In this document: in pieces, positions 1 through 64,000 of the stretch
Position numbering within the stretch: the stretch's first letter is position 1
Layout: each line of letters begins with the position of its first letter
Source of the DNA: an uncultured Candidatus Saccharibacteria bacterium
Lineage (GTDB): Bacteria; Patescibacteriota; Minisyncoccia; Phycocordibacterales; UBA2100
DNA length: 64,000 nucleotides
Assembly (NCBI GenBank): GCA_964512835.1
Contig: CAZELA010000003.1
Span: 15,516-79,515 of the forward strand
Reading direction: 5' to 3'
Made by a program: the position numbers and the translations under genes
Notes under the pieces: model-generated
Database searches by the model: none
What the model saw: the letters and a program-made list of their open reading frames with translations, nothing else
What the model was told of the DNA's origin: nothing

Positions 1-2712
1 GTTTGCAACGTTAGCCTTGATCGTGAGGGTGACATCCGTGTCCTTCGGCAAGTTTACCGGCGTCGAGAGTGTCGACGTAGCAATCGTGCTGCCAGAAGTG
101 AACGTGGCTGTACCAACCTGTGTCGCACCGTTCCAGATCGTGACCTGGATGAAGTCTGCCGAGCTTGTTGCAGAACCCTGGAGACCGAGCTCAGTGAGCG
201 TCATGTCTTCAGAAGTACCGCGGAGCTGGAAGGCACCGATGGTAACGCCGGTCGAAGCGCCCGCAGCAAAAGCGTAGGACGGAGACGACGGAGACGTTGT
301 AACTACGAGCGAGCTGTTTCCAACAGTCTGTGTGCCACTGTTAGAGATCGAGATCGTGAGATTCGTTCCCTGTGTGAGGCTGTTGCCAGACTGTACGCCC
401 GTTGCAGAGAAGGTACCACCAACCGTCGTAACACCTGTGGTGTATGCACCAGAAGCGAGCGACGAAAGGTTGCACTTAACTCCGAGCGTGACTACCGTAC
501 CCTTTGCAATCGTCAACGAATTGTCGAACGTAAAGGTGTTCTGCCCTGCCGAGATGGAAGACGGAACATTGGAGCCCGTGTTAACCGCTGACGATCCGTT
601 CCAGAGCTGGCACGAGCTTACGCCAGTGTTGCTCGAGAAGTTGATCGGGAGCTGGTTAACTCGGATGTCTTCACCCGACTGCGAAGCATCCAACTGGATG
701 TTCGCAAGCAAGACCGCAGAACCACCAGCAACGATCGTCTGAGCTGCCGGCTGAGCCGCAGCAGAGATGTTGAGGGTAGCACCACGAACGGTCATCGTAT
801 TCAGCGAGAAGGATGCTGCCGGGACAACTACAGTATTACCCGTAGTCTGACCGGTTACACCCGTCCAGTTTGCCGTGTTGATTGAAGCAGCATAGGTTGC
901 ACCGTTCGGTACGCCCGTAGCTACCTTACCCTTGATCGTGTAGACGTGTCGACCAGACTTGAGTGTGATCGAGTTGTTGAACGTGACCAAAGTGTTTACA
1001 GCGTCAACCGGACCAGCAACAACGACACCTGCGTCATCGACGAGGGTGACGTTCGTAAGCTGACCGGAAGAGCTCGTTGCAGTACCGTAGATGTTAATCG
1101 CCATGGTCTGAACCGTAAGCGCTTCACCCTTGATGTCTGCTACGAAGCCGCCGAGAGGCTGGTTCGAAACATTGATTGCAATGTTCTGCGACGGAACTTC
1201 CGTTGCGCGAGCAACAGTCGTAACCGACGAGCCCTGGACCAACACGGTCGAGCCCTGGAAGAACGGCTGTGCGTTCGTCGAGCCGGAACCATAGAAGCCA
1301 GAACCGTGTGCCGAAGCAGTCGACGGTGTCGAGCCATTGTACGACGCAGTCGGCGTGATGCCGTAGCCGTAGGTCTGACCGACAACGTAGATGTCAGATG
1401 CACGATCGATGTCCAACTCGATAATTCGAGAGTTCGAGTTCGAACCGGTTACATCACCCTGTACGTAGACATCGAGCGAGTTGCCCTTCGTCATGAGAAC
1501 GCCACCAGCGATCGTAGTCGTGTAGTAGCGACCGTCAGCCGAGAGAACCGTCGGGTAGCTGGTGCCCTCAACTACAGTCATGACATTCGAGATGTCAGAT
1601 GCAGATGCGGAACCATTGAGGCGCCATCGGATCGAGAAGAGGCGTACATCCTCAGCAGCACCCGCAGTCAAGCGGATACCCGAGAACTTAACCGCAGTGT
1701 CACCGATGTTCTTGGTGAGACCAGCGTTCGGATCGAACGAAGATCGTTCCATTGTCGCAGTACCGACAGCCAACGAGTTGTTGATCGTCTGGTTAGCACC
1801 CGAGATCGGGAGAGAACCGGAGACCGTGCTCGTCGTCTGGATACCAGTGACCTGGAGAGCAGCGACCTGACCAGCGTAGTTGGTGAGATCAGATGCCATG
1901 TTGCCAGCGATCGTGAAAGTCATTGACTGACCCGGCTGGAGCATCATCGATTCACCGACAGTCGCCATGTGGTTCGTGTCGAACGTTCGCGGAGTTCCAA
2001 TCTGGAGTCCGTTCTGATCGAGGAGAACAACACCTGCGAATGCAGCGTCAGATGCGAGACCGGCGCGAGTGACCGTCACGCCCGTAACCGTAACTGCAGC
2101 ATTCGACGTGTTCGTCAAAGTGAAGTTCGTGAACGGAACGCGCGATGCGCCCTTCGGAGCAAGCGAGTTTGCCGGCTGAGCGCCTGCAGTAACCGCGAGC
2201 GTACCCGGAGTGGTGTTACCGCCAGTGTTGCCACCGGTGTTACCGCCAGTCGTCGTGCAGAGGGCGTTTGCCTTTGCGCGAGTTGCAGCGAACCAGTTAC
2301 CAGTACCCTTCGACAAGCCCGACGGAGTCAAGATGTCAGCTGCGTACTTCTCCTGGAACTTGATCACAGCTGCTTTCGTAGCCGGACCGAAGGTTGAAGT
2401 CTCGTTTCCTGCTGAACCAGCGCCGCTAGCTGCGACCATGGTGTCAGAAGATTTGTTAAGGAATTTCTGCAAGTTCATGACTTCAGTTCCCTTTGAACCC
2501 ATCTTGAGGTTCGCTGTGAACGTGAAGGAGCACGAGGAGCTCGAAGAGCTACCAGAAAGTGCAGAGATCTGTGCGAGCAATGCGTTGATCTGAGCCTGGA
2601 GGTCAGAAACGGTATCTGCCTTTGCCGGTGTGGCGAAAGCAAAAACCGAGAGGACCATACCAATACCCAAGAGCACTGCTGCAACATTCTTTGTTGCTAA
2701 AGCTTTACTCAT
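1..2712 (-). CDS. Large secreted cell-surface protein (signal peptide, PG_binding_1-like domain, long Thr/Ser/Gly-rich beta-repeat region). Start codon at 2712; 3' end lies beyond the window's left edge.
   Basis: I checked all 904 minus-strand codons (reverse complement of 1..2712) and found no in-frame stop. The N-terminus is MSKALATKNVAAVLLGIGMVLSVFAFATPAKA|DT, a classic signal peptide with an AxA cleavage site. The following 'KMGSKGTEVMNLQKFLN...FGPATKAAVIKFQEKYA' matches the peptidoglycan-binding-domain-1 pattern. The plus-strand ORFs in the track across this region are Arg-rich antisense artefacts. The ORF track omits this gene because it runs off the window. Confidence 0.78.
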   Translation of the reverse strand, partial: MSKALATKNVAAVLLGIGMVLSVFAFATPAKADTVSDLQAQINALLAQISALSGSSSSSSCSFTFTANLKMGSKGTEVMNLQKFLNKSSDTMVAASGAGSAGNETSTFGPATKAAVIKFQEKYAADILTPSGLSKGTGNWFAATRAKANALCTTTGGNTGGNTGGNTTPGTLAVTAGAQPANSLAPKGASRVPFTNFTLTNTSNAAVTVTGVTVTRAGLASDAAFAGVVLLDQNGLQIGTPRTFDTNHMATVGESMMLQPGQSMTFTIAGNMASDLTNYAGQVAALQVTGIQTTSTVSGSLPISGANQTINNSLAVGTATMERSSFDPNAGLTKNIGDTAVKFSGIRLTAGAAEDVRLFSIRWRLNGSASASDISNVMTVVEGTSYPTVLSADGRYYTTTIAGGVLMTKGNSLDVYVQGDVTGSNSNSRIIELDIDRASDIYVVGQTYGYGITPTASYNGSTPSTASAHGSGFYGSGSTNAQPFFQGSTVLVQGSSVTTVARATEVPSQNIAINVSNQPLGGFVADIKGEALTVQTMAINIYGTATSSSGQLTNVTLVDDAGVVVAGPVDAVNTLVTFNNSITLKSGRHVYTIKGKVATGVPNGATYAASINTANWTGVTGQTTGNTVVVPAASFSLNTMTVRGATLNISAAAQPAAQTIVAGGSAVLLANIQLDASQSGEDIRVNQLPINFSSNTGVSSCQLWNGSSAVNTGSNVPSSISAGQNTFTFDNSLTIAKGTVVTLGVKCNLSSLASGAYTTGVTTVGGTFSATGVQSGNSLTQGTNLTISISNSGTQTVGNSSLVVTTSPSSPSYAFAAGASTGVTIGAFQLRGTSEDMTLTELGLQGSATSSADFIQVTIWNGATQVGTATFTSGSTIATSTLSTPVNLPKDTDVTLTIKANVAN

Positions 2713-9691: not shown

Positions 9692-9702
9692 TGTCCCCCA
9701 CA

Positions 9703-9768
9703 GTAAAAACCCGACTTTCGGCGGGGTTTTGAATTTTGTGGTTACTTCTGGATGTACGGGAGACCCCA
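9703..9768. repeat. Degenerate copy A of a ~65-bp unit (terminator hairpin plus pseudo-copy of the rpsR 3' end)
   Basis: 'gtaaaaacccgactttcggcggggttttgaattttgtggttacttctggatgtacgggagacccca' aligns to 9889..9950, which carries the genuine rpsR stop and terminator. Confidence 0.55.
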
Positions 9769-9888
9769 CATGTCTCGCCGCTGCTGCAGGTCGCGCCCAG
9801 GGCCGGCCTCGCGACCCCAAACACCGTCGTGTTTGGGTCCCCCGCTGCGGCTCCTCTTGCCCTCATTCAAACGCTGCGCGTTTACAAA

Positions 9889-9950
9889 GTAAAAACCCGG
9901 CTTTCGCCGGGTTGTTTTTACTTTTGAATGTAGGGCAAGAGGCCCATGAA
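9889..9950. repeat. Copy B of the same unit: bidirectional terminator CCCGGC-tttc-GCCGGG overlapping the rpsR 3' end
   Basis: Read from the sequence. Confidence 0.6.
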
Positions 9951-42923: not shown

Positions 42924-42979
42924 AGTCGTCCGCAAAAATAGAATTTGCAGACGCTGCGCGTCTTTAATTATTTTTGGGC
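42924..42979. repeat. 56-bp direct repeat, copy 1 (contains AGACGC-tgc-GCGTCT hairpin plus T-rich tract)
   Basis: Near-identical to 43117..43172 over the first ~50 nt ('agtcgtccgcaaaaatagaatttgcagacgctgcgcgtctttaattatttttggg'); the two copies diverge at the final ~6 positions ('...gggcagcgc' vs '...gggcgactat'). Confidence 0.85.
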
Positions 42980-43116
42980 AGCGCGGGTAAGGAGTCTAGC
43001 GAGCGGGAATCGGTCAAGCGCTCGATTCTGCGCCGTCGCGCAGAACCTCCGCCTGACCACGCTTAGGCATCCCCATCTGCTGATGGGGGCCCCAGCCTTC
43101 GCCTTCGATTCCCGAT

Positions 43117-43172
43117 AGTCGTCCGCAAAAATAGAATTTGCAGACGCTGCGCGTCTTTAATTATTTTTGGGC
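43117..43172. repeat. 56-bp direct repeat, copy 2, abutting/overlapping the 3' end of tRNA-His
   Basis: As above. It is also flanked by inverted 11-mers cccgatagtcg / cgactatcggg, the latter being the tRNA-His acceptor/T-stem. Confidence 0.85.
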
Positions 43173-43242
43173 GACTATCGGGAATCGAACCCGAATCGAG
43201 GGCTCCACAAACCCTAGTGTTAACCGTTACACCATAGCCGCC
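43169..43242 (-). tRNA. tRNA-His (anticodon GTG) with an encoded G-1
   Basis: Hand-folded cloverleaf: G-1 opposite C73; acceptor GCGGCTA/TAGTCGC; D-stem GTGT/ACAC; anticodon stem AGGGT/GCCCT; loop TTGTGGA; T-arm TCGGG-TTCGATT-CCCGA. Confidence 0.85.
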
Positions 43243-44420: not shown

Positions 44421-45008
44421 TCAACGAGTCGGCGCGTAGCCGTCGGGGTCGAACGATGCAGGATCAAGTCCGGTGAGCGGGTTGTATCCGCAGGCATACG
44501 TTAGACAGTCACGGAAGTACACGCCGTTTTTGTCCCTGGCGTACGAACCGGACGGCGTGACCTCGAGCGTTTCCGTATCGGCACCGTGCGGCAAGTACGT
44601 GAGTTTCGGAGAACGCGTAAGTGCGGTGAGCTTCATATCGGGCCACGTAGGACCGGCGGGAAGTTCGGTGCGGATAAGTCCGGGCGGCGGCACTCCGTCG
44701 TAGGTGATGACTGTGGTTTCTCCGCAGTCGGATTCACCGCACTCCGTGTACACACCCATACCCGCGGGGACGGTCATATCCGCATAGCGAATCCATTTCG
44801 GTGCAGCCTGTGCAACCGCTTGTATAGACGTCGAAAAACGTTCTGCCGGTTTCCGGGGAGCACTTATACGTCGTTCGTTCCGAACGATACCGAACACTCC
44901 TGCCGCAAACAGAAGGATGCCGACTGCAACCACAGCGAACACATAGTTCGGCAACGTATGCAGAGGCGAAGGAGAAGACGGCTCCCCGGCGGGGTCGAGC
45001 GGATTCAT
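44421..45008 (-). CDS. Hypothetical membrane-anchored protein (195 aa)
   Basis: One N-terminal TM (YVFAVVAVGILLFAAGVFGIV) and a Cys-containing extracytoplasmic domain. Confidence 0.5.
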   Translation of the reverse strand: MNPLDPAGEPSSPSPLHTLPNYVFAVVAVGILLFAAGVFGIVRNERRISAPRKPAERFSTSIQAVAQAAPKWIRYADMTVPAGMGVYTECGESDCGETTVITYDGVPPPGLIRTELPAGPTWPDMKLTALTRSPKLTYLPHGADTETLEVTPSGSYARDKNGVYFRDCLTYACGYNPLTGLDPASFDPDGYAPTR

Positions 45009-45075: not shown

Positions 45076-45160
45076 GCGCAGGTGGCGAAATTGGTAGACG
45101 TACTACCTTGAGGTGGTAGCGCCCGTTAAGGGCATGGGAGTTCGAGTCTCCCCCTGCGCA
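45076..45160 (+). tRNA. tRNA-Leu (anticodon GAG)
   Basis: Acceptor GCGCAGG/CCTGCGC; anticodon stem CTACC/GGTAG; loop TTGAGGT; long variable arm; T-arm GGGAG-TTCGAGT-CTCCC. Confidence 0.88.
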
Positions 45161-45204
45161 CACATAACAAAAAACTGGGGCATGCCCCAGTTTTTTGTTA
45201 TGTG
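45161..45204 (+). terminator. Long perfect hairpin immediately after tRNA-Leu (cacataacaaaaaactgggg-cat-gccccagttttttgttatgtg)
   Basis: ~20-bp stem with a T-run in the 3' arm. Confidence 0.7.
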
Positions 45205-45217
45205 GCAGCAGAGGGAG

Positions 45218-45320
45218 ACGAGAAAGCGAGGACTGGGGACCCGCGAACACGCGGGGATGTCCGAGCAGGGCCGAGTGGAGAAAAGTTCTGACGAGAACTT
45301 TTCGAGCGCTTGGCCGAGTC
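45218..45320. repeat. Copy 1 of a ~104-nt structured repeat element (candidate ncRNA or MITE-like element)
   Basis: ~88% identical to 48024..48127. Internal hairpins CCCGCG-aaca-CGCGGG and GAAAAGTTC-tgacga-GAACTTTTC. A second 'cgagagcttgaccgagtc' half-site follows at ~45378. Confidence 0.7.
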
Positions 45321-45458
45321 TCCTGAGCGACGGCGAGCCGAGAGTTGTGGGTCACATTAGACGACGGCGCAAAATCGAGAGCTTGACCGAGTCGCCCCTT
45401 GTGCAATCGAAGGACGCAGCGGCGCGTCGCCGCTGCGAGCGCAGGGTATTATCCCTCT

Positions 45459-46466
45459 ATGCGCCGACTACCGTTCGCACTCGCACTGTGCGCAACGACA
45501 CTCTTTCTATTTTTTACATTTCAGACTGATCCGGTACCGCGCGCGCCCGCACGAGAGCTATCACGCTCCGAGTACGATATAGCCCGAGACACATACCTGA
45601 CAATTCAAAAGACCGCGGGGTCGCGCACTGCACTCGACACCCTCCGTTCAGATATAAACAAAAACGACCCCCTTGCACGCTCATGCCACTCGATCGCCCA
45701 CGAAATAGGACAGCGCGCATTTATCCGCGACCCGGACTTCGGCAGAGCAATGGCAGTACAGAGTGATGTCTGTAACTCCGGGTACATGCACGGCCTCATA
45801 GAGATGTACTTCGTGGAACACGGCAATGCGACATCAACCATGCAGGCCGCATGCGCCGCCTATTCGGGCGGCGACTACCTGAGCTGGGAGTGTTACCACG
45901 GAGTCGGTCACGGACTCATGTTCGCCTCGAGTAACGATCTGCCCCATGCAGTCGTTCAGTGTGACGCCTACAACAACGAGTTCGCGGCGACCGCCTGCCG
46001 CAATGGTGCCTTTATGGAAAACTTCAATACTGATCCGACCGCACATCCTACCGAGTATGTCAGTAGCACCGACCTTTTTTACCCATGCAGCATGTTTGAT
46101 CAACGCGTAGCCGGTGACTGTTACCTCTACGCACCCGTACGCTACCTGAGCGTCCACGAAAATGACTACACAGGCGCACTCACCTGGTGCGGGTCAGCAC
46201 CCGGGAGGTTCAAGGACTTGTGCGTGCGCGGCGTCGGGACTGAAACCATGAAGCGAAACATTTCCGATCCGTCGTTCACGGAAAACGTCTGCTCGGGCGG
46301 AGATTTGTACGAACGATGGGCGTGCATCAGGGGTATGGCGGGCTTATACCTGAATCACGCCGGGTCTATGACTGCGGCGCGAGCGATGTGCAACGCATTA
46401 CAGCTTGTCGACCAACCTGCGTGCTACTACGAGCTCGATCAAGACGCTCCTATGTTCGACCATTAA
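45459..46466 (+). CDS. Hypothetical secreted Cys/His-rich protein
   Basis: Start set at MRRLPFALALCATTLFLFF (signal peptide). Recurrent C..(A/Y)H(E/G)(I/V)G motifs ('CHSIAHEIG', 'CYHGVGHG') suggest metal binding. No family recognised. Confidence 0.65.
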   Translation: MRRLPFALALCATTLFLFFTFQTDPVPRAPARELSRSEYDIARDTYLTIQKTAGSRTALDTLRSDINKNDPLARSCHSIAHEIGQRAFIRDPDFGRAMAVQSDVCNSGYMHGLIEMYFVEHGNATSTMQAACAAYSGGDYLSWECYHGVGHGLMFASSNDLPHAVVQCDAYNNEFAATACRNGAFMENFNTDPTAHPTEYVSSTDLFYPCSMFDQRVAGDCYLYAPVRYLSVHENDYTGALTWCGSAPGRFKDLCVRGVGTETMKRNISDPSFTENVCSGGDLYERWACIRGMAGLYLNHAGSMTAARAMCNALQLVDQPACYYELDQDAPMFDH

Positions 46467-46496
46467 AAAACACCCCATTCGGGGTGTTTTTTATTT
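46465..46496. terminator. Bidirectional terminator AAAAAACACCCC-attc-GGGGTGTTTTTT between convergent genes
   Basis: Read from the sequence. Confidence 0.75.
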
Positions 46497-46507
46497 TGAG
46501 TTTGAAT

Positions 46508-46963
46508 TTATGCCTGCTCTGCGGCTGCGCTCTCTTCTGCGGTCGGAGCTGCTGCTTCGATTGGTGTCTGGTCCTCTTCGATACCCGTAACAACCGGAGC
46601 CGACGACTTGTTTACCAACACAGTTCGGCGGAGTACGCGGCGAGCTTCGCGCGCAACCTTTTCGCGGATGAAGTAGAGCTTTGCGCGGCGCATGGTAGCG
46701 CGCTTTACGATCTCGATCTTGTCGATCATCGGCGAGTACAACGGGAAAATCTTCTCGACTCCCACACCGCTTGATACGCGACGAACAGTGAACGTACCGC
46801 CGGCCTCTGTGCCGTGCTTGCGCGCAAGTACCAAACCTTCAAAGGTCTGAATGCGGGTCTTACCCTTTTCTTCGATCTTCTGGTGAACACGCACCGTATC
46901 CCCCGATCGGAGATCGAGTTCTTTGCGCGCCTTCACGTCTACCGGTGAAATTACGAATGCCAT
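46508..46963 (-). CDS. rplS: 50S ribosomal protein L19 with a C-terminal extension
   Basis: '[72 protein letters not shown]' L19 core. Start set at MAFVISP. Confidence 0.88.
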
Positions 46964-47086
46964 AACGTCGCGGCACTGTAACATGACACCCCGCGGAGGG
47001 CAAATGCACCCTATCGCGCGCTCCTGTTGCACTCCTCCCCCTCCTCTATTAAGGTGCCCGCGGGACCAAACAGAAGGAGGGCACCC

Positions 47087-47644
47087 ATGACTGAGACTCT
47101 ATTGAAGATCGGCGTCGCCGGTAACCGCGACACATTGAACCGCATCGAATCCTGGCTGACCTCGGCAATGCAGCAGTACCTGCCGCCGAGGCGTTTCACC
47201 ATCTCGAATCACGATCCGTTCCCGCCGGGACAGAGCAACACCGAAATGTCGACGCTGGTGCGTCCACCCAAGGGCCTCGGCGCGATCCAGTCGCTACATC
47301 ATCGCTCGGGCACGATTGCGCGCGTGATGCTCGAGCGCAATCCCGACATCGACGTGATGATCCGGATCGACTCCGGCGGCCTGCAGATGGACATCCCGAA
47401 GCCGAGCAGCGTCTACCACGACAGCCAGTACGGCGTTGTTGCAACGCTCGCGACGCGACTGAAGGGCGCCGGCGCGATCATGCTGTACTCCAGCTTGAGC
47501 TCGCAGGGCTATCTGGGCGGAAGCGGCGTCGGCCATCGCCAGGAGACGGCAATGTCGGAGGTCGCGATGCAGGGAGTGCTCCCCCGCTGGTGGATGGAAC
47601 TCAGTCGCGGCGTCCACCGGGCGAGCACCGCGCTCGCTGCCTGA
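47087..47644 (+). CDS. Hypothetical protein; GC-rich, probably horizontally acquired
   Basis: ATG preceded by a GAAGGAGG RBS. ~66% GC with CTG/GGC/CGC-dominated codon usage, unlike neighbours. No family recognised. Long antisense ORFs on the minus strand here are a GC artefact. Confidence 0.55.
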
Positions 47645-47791
47645 ACTGCCTGATTGCACACGTGTTGAGCGGGTCGCCATGCGACCCGCTCTTTCAATAA
47701 TTGGTTTTATTGGGGAAATACGCTAAGGTGATGCAGAAGTAATTCACGGGTCACAAGCTCCGAAGACGACACTCTTCGCGGCGCGGTACCC

Positions 47792-47821
47792 CCGATTGCT
47801 TTCGTATCGTAGTTCATGGGC
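47792..47821. repeat. Duplicate of the tRNA-Val upstream region plus its first ~12 nt (ttcgtatcgtagttcatgggcgattagctc); second copy at 47874..47903
   Basis: Exact 30-mer repeat read from the sequence. Confidence 0.7.
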
Positions 47822-47891
47822 GATTAGCTCCAGAGGACGATGCCGTCGTTCGCGGAGCGGTGCCTTGAAAAGAGTTCGTATCGTAGTTCAT

Positions 47892-47964
47892 GGGCGATTA
47901 GCTCAGTTGGTAGAGCAACGCTTTTACACAGCGAAGGTCACAGGTTCGAGTCCTGTATCGCCCA
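47892..47964 (+). tRNA. tRNA-Val (anticodon TAC)
   Basis: Acceptor GGGCGAT/ATCGCCC; D-arm GCTC-AGTTGGTA-GAGC; anticodon loop TTTACAC; T-arm ACAGG-TTCGAGT-CCTGT. Confidence 0.85.
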
Positions 47965-48012
47965 CACAAATACAAAGGACCGACAGATTCTGTCGGTTCT
48001 TTGTATTTGGTG
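47965..48012 (+). terminator. Long hairpin immediately after tRNA-Val (caaatacaaaggaccgaca-gattc-tgtcggttctttgtatttg)
   Basis: Read from the sequence. Analogous in position and form to the hairpin after tRNA-Leu. Confidence 0.65.
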
Positions 48013-48023
48013 TTGCGCATCAG

Positions 48024-48127
48024 GACGAGAAAGCGAAGGCCGGGTACCCGCGAGCACGCGGGGATGCCTGAGCAGGGCCGAGCGGAGAAACGTTTTGACG
48101 AAAACGTTTCGAGCGCTTGGCCGAGTC
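48024..48127. repeat. Copy 2 of the ~104-nt structured repeat element, followed by a 30-nt duplicate of the tRNA-Val 3' end
   Basis: Aligns to 45218..45320. Hairpin GAAACGTTTT-gacg-AAAACGTTTC preserves the copy-1 stem through compensatory changes. 'cgagtcctgtatcgcccacacaaatacaaa' appears at both 47948..47975 and 48121..48150. Confidence 0.7.
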
Positions 48128-48182
48128 CTGTATCGCCCACACAAATACAAAACCCGCAGCAGTGCGGGTTTTGTGCATTTTG

Positions 48183-48254
48183 TGTCCCCGGTTGGAATCG
48201 AACCAACATAACCGGCTTAGAAGTCCGGTGTTCTATCCATTGAACTACAGGGAC
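48183..48254 (-). tRNA. tRNA-Arg (anticodon TCT)
   Basis: Reverse complement folds as acceptor GTCCCTG/CGGGGAC (one G-U); D-arm GTTC-AATGGATA-GAAC; anticodon loop CTTCTAA (A31-G39 mismatch); T-arm GTTGG-TTCGATT-CCAAC. Confidence 0.75.
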
Positions 48255-58427: not shown

Positions 58428-58512
58428 GGAGGGGTGGCAGAGTGGTCTATCGCACCTGTCTTGAAAACAGGAGTCTCGCAAGGGACCAAGAGTTCGAATC
58501 TCTTCCCCTCCG
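58428..58512 (+). tRNA. tRNA-Ser (anticodon TGA)
   Basis: Acceptor GGAGGGG/CCCCTCC; anticodon stem CCTGT/ACAGG; loop CTTGAAA; long variable arm; T-arm AAGAG-TTCGAAT-CTCTT; discriminator G. Confidence 0.88.
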
Positions 58513-58522
58513 CAATGATTCA

Positions 58523-58546: not shown

Positions 58547-58663
58547 TGATTCATCATTTCGAGTAAGGGAAAAGATTCGAAGGCGAGCGGCGGAGGCTCC
58601 ATCAGCAGATGAAGCGACGCAAGCAGGGACGAACGAGCTCTTGGGCGAATCTCTCTACCCAAA

Positions 58664-58693
58664 TGAAGAACCGGTGCAGATAGCTGCACCGGT
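58664..58693. terminator. Hairpin CCGGTGCAG-atag-CTGCACCGG plus TTTTT just downstream of the DnaJ-domain gene stop
   Basis: Read from the sequence. Confidence 0.55.
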
Positions 58694-62353: not shown

Positions 62354-62425
62354 GCTCCCGTCGTTCAACGGATAGGATGCATCCTTGCGGAGGATGTGAT
62401 GTAGGTTCGATTCCTGCCGGGAGCA
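62354..62425 (+). tRNA. tRNA-Arg (anticodon read as GCG)
   Basis: Acceptor GCTCCCG/CGGGAGC; anticodon stem CATCC/GGATG; loop TTGCGGA; T-arm GTAGG-TTCGATT-CCTGC (one G-U). D-stem has two G-U pairs, so the anticodon call is moderate. Confidence 0.6.
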
Positions 62426-62432
62426 CAATGCA

Positions 62433-62460
62433 ACAAAATCTGCCGAAAGGCAGATTTTGT
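62433..62460 (+). terminator. Terminator after the tRNA (AAAATCTGCC-gaaa-GGCAGATTTT)
   Basis: Read from the sequence. Confidence 0.75.
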
Positions 62461-62608
62461 CGTTGTGCGACCAAGCAGAACACCTGCGTGCGCTATGCGC
62501 AGGAATCAAACGCCGGCGGAATGCGAGGCCGGTAGGCAGAGGCGCGAGGCGCGGTTGCGGAAATACGTTTGCGACGACACATGCAGTGCCCGTGACCGCA
62601 ATGCTTTC

Positions 62609-64000
62609 CTACTGCACCACTTTGAATGCCGCCGATATCGGGTTGTCGATGAATTTCGGTTCCGGCAACGAAGCATCCTTCACTTCGCCGAGATTCGCAT
62701 TCACCGGCTGGTACAGCGAAGCCAAAATCGCATACGTTGCGCCCGGGATGAGGTCAGTGCCGCATACAAGCGACGATGACATGTCGCACTCTTCGCCCTC
62801 GGTCGGAATGCTCCATGAGTACGTACCGGTTTTCGAGCGATGACCTGTTATGAGCGCGACGGTTTTCTTTTCTTCGACACTGTACAACCACAATGCAACA
62901 GCGGAGGCATCAGGTGCATCCGGGAAGTTCCAGCGTAGCGTCGCCTCGGATCCCCGCACTACATCAGTGCGGTTCTCGATTGACGCACTGATCGTCCCCG
63001 GTCGGTAGGCATCCAGCGTGATCTTTTCCTGCCGATTCTCGCCCGTCACCGTAACACAGTCCACATAAAAGTCGGACCGCTCAACTACCGGCGAGGTCGT
63101 CGCTATGCCTGCGGTGGCCGTTCGCGAAGCGTTTCGTGCCGTAAAGTCCTCCTGATCAGGGCTTGAGACCGTGCACGATTTCATACCGGTAGTCACCCAC
63201 CCGATCAGTGCACTGGTGCCCACTTTTACCGGATTAGGCTCAGCGCGAAGCGATATAGAAACTTTTGCGAGCTGTACCGAACACTGCGCGCCAGCAGTTA
63301 CGTTTCCGTCTTCACATTTAATCGCAAAATTCTTTCCGACAGCATTCTCCGGCGCGTCGTCGAGCGTAACCGTTGTTGCTCCTGCGGTCGCACCATTCGT
63401 GTCGAATCCGAGCCCGGTCGAACGTTGCGAATTCGTGCACGTGTATGAAATCGTCACGCGCGAACCCTTTTCGGCTACATCGGGGTTACACGCAATCTGC
63501 GCCGTCGGGGTTGTCGCATTGTTTGGTACACATTGCCAGACGGGGCAGACCATACCCGCACCGGATGCGGTCATTTGTCTCCATGTGCCGGTCGGACACG
63601 TTGCCGCAGACGGCTGTGCTGGAAGCTGCGGACACTGCCCGTTACCGTCCGTTCCGTACCTGGGTCGACACGGTTGCGGCGCTACCGGCGGCACAACGGT
63701 GTTTGTATACCCATACGAGGAGTTGTTTCGTACCTGGTAGTTATATTGTTCGAGCTGATAGTTGTATTGCTGCAATTGATAGTTGTATTGCTGCTGATAC
63801 TGCGCATACGCTTGCGGGTCGGTCGGGCATGATTGCGCCGGCCCCTGCTGCGGCTGCTGCGGCTGTCCTACGCCCAGCCCTTTCATGAGTCCTCCAAGGA
63901 ACGACATGAGTCCGCTTGCACCCGATCCTCCGAACGAACCGAGTCCGCCGGTCGTTTGTCGCGGCGCTGTCTGCGCGTCGGGGATTGTTGACGGCGGTTG
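62609..64000 (-). CDS. Hypothetical secreted/extracellular protein with N-terminal Gly-rich and QQYNYQ repeats; the reading frame stays open to the window's right edge, so the 5' end may lie beyond it
   Basis: The track lists 62609..63907, but there is no in-frame stop between 63908 and 64000 (translation ...GGLGSFGGSGASGLMSFLGGLMKGLG...). Triple 'QQYNYQL' repeat, then a Cys-containing Thr/Ser-rich domain. Confidence 0.55.
   Translation of the reverse strand, partial: QPPSTIPDAQTAPRQTTGGLGSFGGSGASGLMSFLGGLMKGLGVGQPQQPQQGPAQSCPTDPQAYAQYQQQYNYQLQQYNYQLEQYNYQVRNNSSYGYTNTVVPPVAPQPCRPRYGTDGNGQCPQLPAQPSAATCPTGTWRQMTASGAGMVCPVWQCVPNNATTPTAQIACNPDVAEKGSRVTISYTCTNSQRSTGLGFDTNGATAGATTVTLDDAPENAVGKNFAIKCEDGNVTAGAQCSVQLAKVSISLRAEPNPVKVGTSALIGWVTTGMKSCTVSSPDQEDFTARNASRTATAGIATTSPVVERSDFYVDCVTVTGENRQEKITLDAYRPGTISASIENRTDVVRGSEATLRWNFPDAPDASAVALWLYSVEEKKTVALITGHRSKTGTYSWSIPTEGEECDMSSSLVCGTDLIPGATYAILASLYQPVNANLGEVKDASLPEPKFIDNPISAAFKVVQ

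Follow-up and report, generated by a model that had tools for sequence, protein, structure and literature searches.

The two ~104-nt repeats in the window (the whole 64,000-nt stretch of DNA analysed here) are members of a large family, so far unannotated, of small, non-coding and structured modules that lie just 3' of tRNA genes in Patescibacteria. The family is new, with no match to any described RNA family or mobile element checked. Our preferred reading, to which as a whole we give a probability of about one half, is that of a non-autonomous module which spreads between tRNA 3' ends and is co-transcribed with the tRNA; its spread and its expression are what we infer from the copies described below.

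Every unit has a constant order: a segment A, a spacer hairpin H, a segment A', a core of ~90 nt and then A again. A is the 3' segment of the tRNA and spans T-loop (near C56) to discriminator. In A', this segment stands in reverse complement, specific to each host tRNA and mirroring it even in the T-loop and at the partners of wobble pairs. The core is a pair of hairpins, both interrupted by an internal loop, and the module as a whole is non-coding and about 130-190 nt in size. A' and the downstream A pair and close a three-way junction, so that the closing helix replicates the T-stem of the host tRNA and often its acceptor stem too. As the tRNA 3' end is complete ahead of the module, the tRNA gene remains intact, and the upstream host tRNAs are intact. 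The sequence-only reading of the window did not contain A', the key feature of the unit. The features in the window are as follows.

43169..43241, minus strand: host tRNA-His(GTG) (ARAGORN; Rfam tRNA 59.1 bits)
43122..43168, minus strand: spacer hairpin H of the His unit, inside an exact 56-nt repeat, 43117-43172 (sequence; repeat analysis)
43104..43121, minus strand: A' of the His unit, CGACTATCGGGAATCGAA, the reverse complement of tRNA-His from the T-loop into the acceptor strand
43012..43103, minus strand: core of the His copy, P2 and P3, GGTCAGG/CTTGACC subtype (covariance model R1 132 bits; fold z = -6.6)
42924..43012, minus strand: downstream A of the His unit, CGATTCCCG, followed by a 24-nt insert and then a second copy of the 56-nt repeat (CCCA, the whole of H and the start of A')
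45076-45161, plus strand: host tRNA-Leu(GAG) (ARAGORN; Rfam 50.8 bits)
45161..45204, plus strand: spacer hairpin H of the Leu unit, a perfect palindrome that resembles a terminator (sequence)
45205..45225, plus strand: A' of the Leu unit, GCAGCAGAGGGAGAC, and the junction GAGAAA; complementary, with mismatches, to the T-stem and acceptor 3' strand of tRNA-Leu
45226..45315, plus strand: core of the Leu copy, P2 and P3, GGCCGAG/CTTGGCC subtype (R1 137.6 bits; fold z = -6.6)
45315..45323, plus strand: downstream A of the Leu unit, cut down to CGAGTCTCC; direct repeat of 11 nt
45340..45405, plus strand: older second Leu copy, 3' half only (3' strand of P3, CTTGACC subtype), then a degenerate tRNA-Leu 3' end, CGAGTCGCCCCTTGTGCA
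47892..47965, plus strand: host tRNA-Val(TAC), whose last 18 nt, with the 12 nt that follow, make up repeat copy 1, 47947-47976 (ARAGORN; Rfam)
47966..48010, plus strand: spacer hairpin H1 of the Val unit; no plus-strand terminator call
48012..48032, plus strand: A' of the Val unit, GTTGCGCATCAGGAC, a degenerate complement of the tRNA-Val 3' end, and the junction
48033..48122, plus strand: core of the Val copy (R1 145.5 bits; fold z = -5.3)
48122..48151, plus strand: downstream A of the Val unit, an exact duplicate of 30 nt that begins at T-loop C56 and extends 12 nt beyond the tRNA end
48146..48175, plus strand: canonical bidirectional terminator closing the unit of tRNA-Val and element, common to the convergent tRNA-Arg(TCT)
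58560..58673, plus strand: decayed copy 3' of tRNA-Ser(TGA) (58428-58513), with P3b deleted and P2 mutated (R1 30.5 bits; sequence)
62427..62610, plus strand: possible relic 3' of tRNA-Arg(GCG) (62354-62426), a hairpin followed by the A'-like GCAGGAATC at 62499-62507 (12-nt inverted repeat)

The window, which comes from a Saccharibacteria genome, therefore holds three intact copies (Leu, Val and His), one half copy, one decayed copy (Ser) and one possible relic (Arg(GCG)), the last without a covariance model match at 62427..62610. The sequence-only reading had described the Leu and Val copies, and its account of them stands: the repeats, at 45217-45320 and 48024-48127, are 88% identical, the compensatory changes in the distal stem (GAAAAGTTC/GAACTTTTC versus GAAACGTTTT/AAAACGTTTC) are seen in the alignment, both copies retain the inner hairpin CCCGCG/CGCGGG, and a long hairpin begins at the end of each tRNA. 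The exact 30-nt duplication that it saw at tRNA-Val is present, its coordinates (47947-47976 and 48122-48151) being 1-2 nt from those first given, and the end motif CGAGNGCTTGRCCGAGTC recurs at 45303, 45376 and 48110, a further minus-strand occurrence at 43007-43024 having one mismatch (six matches at up to two mismatches, with 0.02 expected). A duplication of the tRNA-Val 5' flank, also pointed out earlier, is real (47775-47830 and 47849-47904, 82% over 56 nt) but lies outside the element, and belongs to two degenerate 74-nt tRNA-Val-like units. The full third copy, 3' of tRNA-His on the minus strand (covariance model match 42985-43125), is an addition to that account; its A' forms a 21-nt inverted repeat with at most one mismatch to tRNA-His, and carries an A opposite U69 of the G4-U69 wobble pair. 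The decayed tRNA-Ser(TGA) copy had likewise gone unrecorded.

Beyond the two copies first noticed, pattern scans and the covariance model gave 49 matches, representing 46 distinct sequences on 37 contigs, and the named genomes among them are all Patescibacteria (CPR bacteria). The proposed tRNA 3'-end context is general: about 40 of the 49 copies have a tRNA on their own strand 25-140 nt upstream, with ~20 isoacceptors represented, and the others are cut by a contig end, stand second in a tandem or have no upstream tRNA (L037, L041). In the retrieved loci the element is present at 41 of 71 tRNAs; at least two further tRNAs carry subtypes missed by the model, and one has a possible relic.

The fold is strongly supported by covariation in this larger alignment, in which double changes occur at 33 of the 37 pairs and the paired fraction of cells is 95.6%. 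None of 500 shuffles equalled the observed value, and slid controls were 32-45% paired. The three-way junction is retained in the more diverged subtypes. G-U and U-G pairs together number 95, against 15 for A-C and C-A, which assigns the fold to the tRNA strand; this bias alone is compatible with RNA and with top-strand single-stranded DNA alike.

With Rfam 15, only the tRNAs of the window pass the gathering threshold, and at E <=10 nothing credible covers the core (the matches being miRNA hairpins and a ylbH hairpin that scores 28.9 bits where the threshold is 50). The impression of an unfamiliar RNA thus agrees with Rfam, which assigns no family. The earlier rejection of a hammerhead also agrees, in that neither this nor any other ribozyme model matches; the models below gathering threshold include hammerhead, twister, pistol, hatchet, tmRNA, 5S and group I intron. 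Viral contigs, phages and plasmids contain no matches to the element. The 91 ORFs flanking copies show no enrichment of integrases, transposases or reverse transcriptases, and none of these enzymes is found near the window copies.

Several known classes were compared with the element and set aside. MITEs and REPIN-like repeats are said to be short, multi-copy, non-coding, hairpin-forming and intergenic, often just 3' of genes, with decayed and nested copies and a presumed trans-acting enzyme, all of which the element shares. A strict MITE is excluded because the inverted repeat is copied from the local host tRNA, A'/A differing for each tRNA as its 3' end does rather than being a constant terminal repeat owned by the element, and because the flanking repeat, at 19-67 nt and less in decayed copies, lacks the fixed length of a target-site duplication. 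Furthermore, the element is located strictly at tRNA 3' ends, its covariation is strong and specific to one strand, and no transposase domains of an autonomous partner occur among the 91 flanking ORFs. A tRNA intron (group I or BHB) is rejected, as the complete tRNA precedes the element, no group I model matches, and A' is antisense, not sense, to the T-loop. A retron ncRNA is rejected on the lack of reverse transcriptases among the flanking ORFs.

There is also a likeness to the tRNA-like domain of tmRNA and to mascRNA, as these are reported: the closing helix contains the T-stem in all copies, and acceptor stem and discriminator in about half, and the element stands directly 3' of a tRNA, like a second 'tRNA' in an operon. 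This position makes processing by RNase P and RNase Z plausible. However, the 90-nt two-hairpin core takes the place of the T-loop, the acceptor part is missing from many well-conserved copies (e.g. L053, at 143 bits), and the helix sequence is copied from the neighbouring tRNA and is not constant.

The repeated segments themselves follow the tRNA closely. In most copies the direct repeat begins at T-loop C56, and in ~20 of 36 it reaches the tRNA end; it is usually 19-25 nt long, ending at the tRNA 3' end, but is 30-67 nt in four copies, where it runs through H. A' appears as a near-exact inverted repeat of up to 21 nt (at most one mismatch) ~45-55 nt downstream, and is restricted to tRNAs that carry the element (median 14 nt versus 7.5 nt).

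Copies also differ in presence, state and composition. Related genomes show empty sites of the kind that the sequence-only reading had proposed to look for: tRNA-Val is without the element in L015 and L065, while other tRNAs on those contigs are occupied. Some tRNAs carry more than one copy, in tandem or nested and of different subtypes (window Leu, L036, L043, L029, L023), and copies have decayed (window Ser, L009 Trp). Core similarity does not track tRNA identity: for example, the cores of a Ser-TGA and a Glu copy share 95% identity, and those of a Leu-GAG and a Tyr copy 93%. L053, behind tRNA-Ser(TGA), has a distal A of Ser(GGA) type. The empty sites, mixed-subfamily tandems, recombinant copies and decayed copies together suggest an element of duplicative, site-specific behaviour, transcribed together with the tRNA. 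The initial proposal, of either a small non-autonomous element at tRNA 3' ends or a structured ncRNA family, has thus gained support on both counts. No filled and empty pair was found in near-identical genomes, and hence the inserted segment and its junctions lack exact definition.

Under this preferred reading, the module sits at the 3' end of the tRNA gene, on the tRNA strand, and would be gained or lost through site-specific duplicative DNA events at the segment from T-loop to 3' end. A would act like the core of an attachment site, with the newest unit adjoining the tRNA, and copies may exchange parts by recombination. The match of A' and A to each tRNA could arise through integration at cognate sites or, alternatively, through template switching that corrects the quasi-palindrome A-H-A'. 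Read-through transcription started at the tRNA promoter would yield the module as a structured trailer RNA ending at the next terminator, and its tRNA-like closing helix may allow release by RNase P and RNase Z. The interval between H and A' leaves no room for a promoter. No sense-strand terminator is called for H at Val and His, the Val element is followed by its canonical terminator, and H has no U-tract in GC-rich lineages. In Saccharibacteria, H often resembles an intrinsic terminator, as in the Leu copy with its U6 tract, and read-through there could therefore be rare.

The same data could describe an RNA that serves the host and does not move, a reading that we consider rather unlikely. 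The module would be a conserved tRNA trailer, cis-acting or released, in Patescibacteria tRNA biogenesis or quality control: A' would zip with the 3' half of the tRNA through H, the downstream A would compete, and the core would be a sensor or protein-binding platform, with patchiness arising by loss and gene conversion. The deep conservation of core sequence and structure, which extends with the three-way junction across Saccharibacteria, Paceibacteria and Kaiserbacteria and includes diverged subtypes, fits a host-beneficial RNA equally well, and the high occupancy of tRNAs and the lack of mobility enzymes among the 91 flanking ORFs speak for it. At L041, which has no tRNA, a promoter-like TTGGAA-16-TAAAAT lies directly 5' of H. 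Whole-transcript folds favour the tRNA-A:H:A' hairpin where the downstream A is short. In addition, A' remains complementary to the tRNA over 17-21 nt in units with a decayed downstream A (window His, L010 His, L016/L057 Arg, L057 Gly), and it follows tRNA sequence changes in orthologues. This suggests that the partner of A' is possibly the tRNA itself, a feature that a mobile element does not predict. Nevertheless, single copies are decayed or missing at the same tRNA in relatives, it is difficult to account for mixed-subtype tandems at one tRNA unless insertion has recurred, and a perfect A-H-A' palindrome could be maintained by template-switch correction of DNA without selection.

A direct repeat from the T-loop to the 3' end that regenerates the tRNA is the classic signature of tRNA attachment sites. 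Sites of this T-loop class are reportedly used by integrative elements such as tyrosine-integrase islands and prophages, and the element shares with them this repeat, the displaced tRNA 3' fragment at the far end and tandem arrays resembling accretion. It could accordingly be a scar, or cis-mobilizable mini-element, left by larger islands or prophages, the direct repeats being attL and attR cores of a T-loop-crossing tyrosine integrase and the core a conserved island end. We judge this improbable. The repeats always enclose the same ~150 nt of H, A' and core, non-coding and never of kilobase scale, and no copy, in the window or among those with the 91 flanking ORFs, has an integrase beside it; this constant content and absence of integrases speak against an island scar. 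Furthermore, an extra, inverted copy of the att segment (A') is present, ~20 tRNA species are used, each with its matching A and A', viral contigs, phages and plasmids give no matches, and RNA-type covariation with G-U pairs is unexpected for arm sites in double-stranded DNA.

Equally improbable is a recombination site in folded single-stranded DNA, comparable with integron attC or CTX phage attP(+), in which A' and A would fold on one strand into a duplex mimicking the tRNA gene 3' end and be recombined with that gene by a host recombinase. In those systems, as they are generally described, inverted segments tens of nucleotides apart fold one strand into a target-like duplex, and cassettes form tandem arrays at a single entry point. 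The strand-biased structure, the ~90-nt structured spacer between inverted repeats, a unit too small for coding and the better-preserved unit adjoining the tRNA in some tandems (window Leu, L036) are consistent with this. However, the primary sequence of the core is highly conserved, as that of attC sites is not, the target is a tRNA gene rather than attI or dif, and neither an IntI-like nor any other recombinase is linked to the copies (91 flanking ORFs). The structure could equally be RNA, and no direct evidence points to a single-stranded DNA stage. The tandem G-A motifs and conserved loops of the core resemble RNA tertiary motifs, a resemblance only.

Least probable of all is a new ribozyme that cleaves or ligates itself, or else a small circular RNA of viroid type, with copies in the genome, for which the compact three-way junction with its conserved junction and internal-loop nucleotides, the ~175-nt unit that can be drawn as a closed structure (a three-armed rod in the circular permutation A-H-A'-core) and the lack of matches to known families could be cited, but which is purely structural speculation, with known ribozyme cores absent, no nearby reverse transcriptase to account for DNA copies and group II introns undetected in the Patescibacteria genomes surveyed (PMC13011429).

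More tentatively than for the small mobile module preferred above, a new class of protein-less, tRNA-templated module is possible. Here, a ~90-nt core would enter at the T-loop of essentially any tRNA gene and rebuild the tRNA 3' end in both inverted and direct form, leaving the tRNA intact and a closing helix that replicates its acceptor and T-stem. Propagation would be by a mechanism not previously described, candidates being a ~175-nt circle that integrates by way of folded single-stranded DNA or of RNA, and hairpin-driven template switching. If this is so, the RNA of the module might additionally act on its cognate tRNA through the 20-nt antisense A'.

The 104-nt repeat claimed in the sequence-only reading was recovered by repeat search and alignment, with 88 % identity between its two copies. 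As that reading also had it, both copies lie 3' of a tRNA gene on the same strand, each is preceded by a long hairpin starting from the last base of the tRNA, and the Val copy is flanked by an exact 30-nt duplication. The end motif that it described, CGAGNGCTTGRCCGAGTC, has six matches at no more than two mismatches (0.02 expected). A minus-strand match of this motif revealed a third full copy, missed in that reading, 3' of tRNA-His(GTG), in which both stems differ in sequence yet still pair. One three-way junction fold is common to the three window copies (z = -5.3 to -6.6), and their tRNA-sense strand folds 10–15 kcal/mol better than the complement.

Copies of the element and associated features in the window
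42924-42979 and 43117-43172: exact 56-nt repeat flanking the His copy
43169-43241, minus strand: tRNA-His(GTG), host of the third copy
45076-45161, same strand as its copy: tRNA-Leu(GAG)
45217-45320: copy 3' of tRNA-Leu(GAG)
47892-47965, same strand as its copy: tRNA-Val(TAC)
47947-47976 and 48122-48151: exact 30-nt duplication around the Val copy
48024-48127: copy 3' of tRNA-Val(TAC)
58560-58673: decayed copy after tRNA-Ser(TGA), found by R1, the covariance model (CM) of the element

The duplicate of the tRNA-Val 5' flank, also listed in the earlier reading, is explained by tRNA-Val-like tandem units and lies outside the element. These two 74-nt units (47744–47891), directly 5' of tRNA-Val, align with it (GGGCGATTAGCTC…GTTCG…) and, judged by that alignment, resemble degenerate pseudogenes of tRNA-Val. 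A second Saccharibacteria genome conserves this layout (L015, about 629–702, minus strand; L-numbers denote contig loci fetched for comparison).

In about 40 copies compared with their host tRNAs, the unit order was invariant: A, H, A', core and A again. The first A is the tRNA 3' segment, from T-loop to discriminator; H is a spacer hairpin of ~40 nt, shorter in some copies; A' is the reverse complement of A (CGACTATCGGGAATCGAA in the window His unit); and the core, of ~90 nt, comprises stems P2 and P3. The closing stem P1 is formed by A' and the downstream A and is a replica of the host tRNA T-stem, to which about half of the copies add the acceptor stem and discriminator. The module is non-coding and fixed to tRNA 3' ends, and it leaves the host tRNA intact. 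In the Arg copies of L016 and L057, A' matches the last 18–19 nt of the tRNA exactly. A' is not a sense copy of the tRNA 5' strands, because the T-loop complement is present (e.g. ATTTGCA in L060, for the unusual loop TGCAAAT) and because Watson–Crick partners face the wobble positions U69 of tRNA-His, where A' carries an A, and U64 of tRNA-Arg. A T-loop intron in a tRNA minigene was rejected, since A' reverse-complements the T-loop and the acceptor 3' strand, as was a primer-binding site for mature tRNA, since A' has no CCA complement and is continuous with the trailer hairpin.

The direct repeat begins at T-loop position C56 in most copies. It stops 0–4 nt beyond the tRNA end (19–25 nt) in about 20 of 36 copies, spans the whole of H (30–67 nt) in the window Val and His units, L004 and L060, and is cut down to the T-stem part in about 12. 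The downstream tRNA-end copy is often split by an insert at the boundary of T-stem and acceptor strand, ~105 nt long in Ser copies (L040, L053) and 20–24 nt (CGCTAGAC…) in His copies (window 42980–43003; L010). At the otherwise empty tRNA-His of L015, only a short remnant (…GAACCCGCGCCGCCCA) is kept after the tRNA.

At occupied tRNAs, the inverted repeat has a median length of 14 nt and reaches 21 nt (at most one mismatch), about 45–55 nt downstream; the same criterion gives a median of 7.5 nt at 30 tRNAs that have no CM hit. The inverted repeat is specific to occupied tRNAs, and this background level at element-free tRNAs excludes A' as a general trait of long terminator palindromes. Three of the 30 are outliers: the window tRNA-Arg(GCG), which may hold a relic of the element, and L029 tRNA-Pro and L004 tRNA-Tyr, where more diverged subtypes are present. 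Together with that of L065 tRNA-Arg(TCT), these subtypes have the same A-H-A'-core-A order and, although their core sequences differ, keep the three-way junction. The architecture thus predates the modelled sequence family and extends beyond it.

The junction is conserved and strand-specific. RNAalifold on a 16-sequence MAFFT alignment gave 37 pairs, 19 of them with compensatory changes. Covariation was also found in the larger alignment of 46 sequences, which is fitted to the model, so that its figures are flattered, the independent MAFFT result agreeing in direction: 33 of 37 pairs change on both sides, 95.6 % of cells are paired, none of 500 shuffles attains any of these measures, and sliding the 3' partners by 1–3 columns lowers pairing to 32–45 %. 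G-U and U-G pairs number 95, against 15 A-C and C-A, indicating that the fold is selected on the tRNA-sense strand, as RNA; top-strand single-stranded DNA is less likely. Conserved features that are single-stranded or non-Watson–Crick comprise, in P2, a symmetric tandem G-A and the internal loop UGGGG/AU, in P3 the internal loop GA/GAG, and, at the junction, two short strands.

A pattern built from the three window copies was scanned over 185,579 species genomes and gave 14 true copies, which belong without exception to Saccharibacteria, Paceibacteria, Kaiserbacteria or unclassified Patescibacteria; a further 20 matches, within unrelated sequence, are due to chance. A metagenome scan added 26 contigs. 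In place of two copies, R1 finds a family of 49 (46 distinct) across 37 contigs, and, by its named hits, the family is confined to Patescibacteria. Over half of the tRNA genes at the loci sampled carry the module (~150 nt), a fraction biased upward because these loci were picked for containing the element. In an uncultured Saccharibacteria MAG (L033, contig CAZWFX010000006.1), one copy is identical to the window Leu copy, which places the window in that organism or in a nearly identical one. Position 1 of this contig (locus L061) corresponds to window 45130, inside tRNA-Leu and just 5' of the element, and the contig start of L062 falls within the element. No relevant earlier description turned up in literature searches; a single related paper (PMC13011429) treats group I introns of Patescibacteria tRNAs, which are anticodon-loop introns. 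The element is real, and its family is much larger than first seen.

Empty sites exist in relatives. tRNA-Val lacks the element in L015, a Saccharibacterium that is syntenic and whose tRNA-Val is identical, and in L065, a relative found via the neighbouring 185-aa protein; occupied instead are tRNA-Leu in L015 and tRNA-Arg(TCT) in L065, while the window has the element at Val and none at Arg(TCT). A search through the same protein for an empty site in a near-identical strain returned only contigs ending before the tRNA, or a 62 %-identical relative. This protein, encoded beside rplS, has four homologues at E ≤1e-10 in a 5.8-billion-protein database and therefore appears limited to a narrow Saccharibacteria lineage.

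Several units, often of unlike subtypes, can stand in tandem or nested at a single tRNA. The window Leu copy is followed by the 3' half of an older copy of CTTGACC type (named by its P3 strands) and a degenerate tRNA-Leu end (45340–45405); L036 has two full units at one tRNA, and further examples occur in L043, L029, L023 and L057. In the tRNA-Gly spacer of L016 (176–300), a core-less A'-hairpin-A unit (GTGCGGG-GGCTCCGTAGGAGCC-AACCCGCAC) lies between two hairpins upstream of a complete element, and may have arisen by deletion or represent a precursor state of the module. Decayed copies follow the window tRNA-Ser and L009 tRNA-Trp, and L010 has a partial copy. Core similarity, as compared in sequence, is independent of tRNA identity (Ser-TGA/Glu 95 %, Leu-GAG/Tyr 93 %, Trp/Leu-TAA 92 %). 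Even at orthologous loci, an entire arm can differ between copies, the window and L010 His copies having H and A' in common and different P3 types. In L053, 3' of tRNA-Ser(TGA), A' is of TGA type and the distal A, past the ~105-nt insert, of Ser(GGA) type; the core, together with >130 nt of the flank 3' of it, has its homologue at the Ser(GGA) locus of L040, and by these homologies L053 is a recombinant. The H of Glu, Ala, Gly and His copies has AAAAATWAC..GAG…CGACWATWWTTTTTG in common, and therefore H moves along with the module in one lineage at least. As read from these comparisons, gain, loss, stacking and recombination of copies rank among the demonstrated properties of the family.

The best reading, to which we give a probability of about 0.5, is that of a structured module, non-autonomous and anchored at tRNAs, which is duplicative as DNA and expressed as a tRNA trailer. 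A would act as the attachment core, its span being that of classical T-loop tRNA att sites, and integration at A of a circular permutation, A-H-A'-core (~175 nt), would yield the observed order and the tandem arrays. The 56–67-nt repeats with H inside resemble one unit joined to a portion of another. The match of A' and A to the tRNA could arise if each element lineage were cognate to one tRNA, with rare switching. Alternatively, template switching could correct the A-H-A' quasi-palindrome to perfection while selection protects the tRNA arm. Such correction would explain why A' is kept perfect when the distant downstream A has decayed (25 copies vs 5, a few downstream-A extractions being faulty), and why A' followed a T-stem change between the orthologous Arg copies of L016 and L057.

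With regard to expression, the H-A' interval is too short for a promoter, H of the Val and His units is not called as a terminator on the sense strand, and H has no U-tract in GC-rich lineages; this makes production as a tRNA trailer the most likely route for the module. A canonical terminator lies 3' of the Val unit. A tRNA-like closing helix directly after a tRNA would give the layout of a second gene in a tRNA operon, and the module might be released through cleavage by RNase Z at the tRNA and by RNase P at A'. H-A'-core-A is present without an upstream tRNA in L041 (150–200) and L037 (839–1025). In L041, H is preceded at a few bases' distance by a good sigma-70-like promoter (TTGGAA, 16 nt, TAAAAT), which suggests possible stand-alone expression. 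In folds of whole transcripts with a short downstream A, a ~40-bp hairpin forms between A' and the 3' half of the tRNA itself; with an intact downstream A, both structures coexist. A host ncRNA tied to tRNA maturation, the main rival reading and in our view the less likely one, would put this competition for A' to use.

We assign the element to no known family. cmscan, run at the gathering threshold and at E up to 10, matched it to no Rfam family, and ribozymes including the hammerhead, riboswitches, 5S, SRP, tmRNA and group I introns were thereby rejected. It shares repeat geometry with tRNA-integrating islands but has no integrase or cargo. MITEs and REPINs are comparable in size, copy number and decay, but their constant terminal repeats and fixed target duplication are missing here. 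The folded single-stranded sites attC and CTX attP likewise have two inverted segments, as the element has around its ~90-nt spacer, but this spacer is sequence-conserved and a link to a recombinase was not observed. The closing helix is like that of tRNA-like capped RNAs; a T-loop, however, is absent, and so is the acceptor part in many well-conserved copies. Phage, plasmid or island cargo was rejected: viral contigs, phages and plasmids gave no match, the 91 ORFs flanking copies encode no integrase, transposase or reverse transcriptase, nor is there such a gene near the window copies, and the neighbours are housekeeping genes. A small peptide or a 5' leader of a downstream gene was rejected, as downstream genes vary; a hairpin or terminator, and not a gene directly, comes next after the window Val and His copies.

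Around the elements, the ORFs at 45399–46466 (+), 47087–47644 (+) and 44421–45008 (-) have no Pfam match. Elsewhere in the window, the intergenic segment 9692–9945 has two terminator-like hairpins (9699–9730 and 9885–9916, 84 % identical) that bracket a GC-rich stretch of ~150 nt with a strong fold (z = -4.0) and no Rfam hit; it could be another small RNA.

Patescibacteria genomes are tiny, with little spare DNA; nevertheless, the module stands at many of the sampled tRNA genes. As a mobile element, it would rank among the smallest site-specific ones known, with a novel means of leaving an essential target unharmed, a copy of that target's 3' end. As a host RNA, it would represent an ncRNA found across the phylum and connected with tRNA production, in a group whose RNA biology has hardly been explored. 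On either reading, the element provides a new RNA structure with good support (33 covarying pairs) and a marker for CPR genomes, and it may contribute to assembly breaks at tRNA loci.
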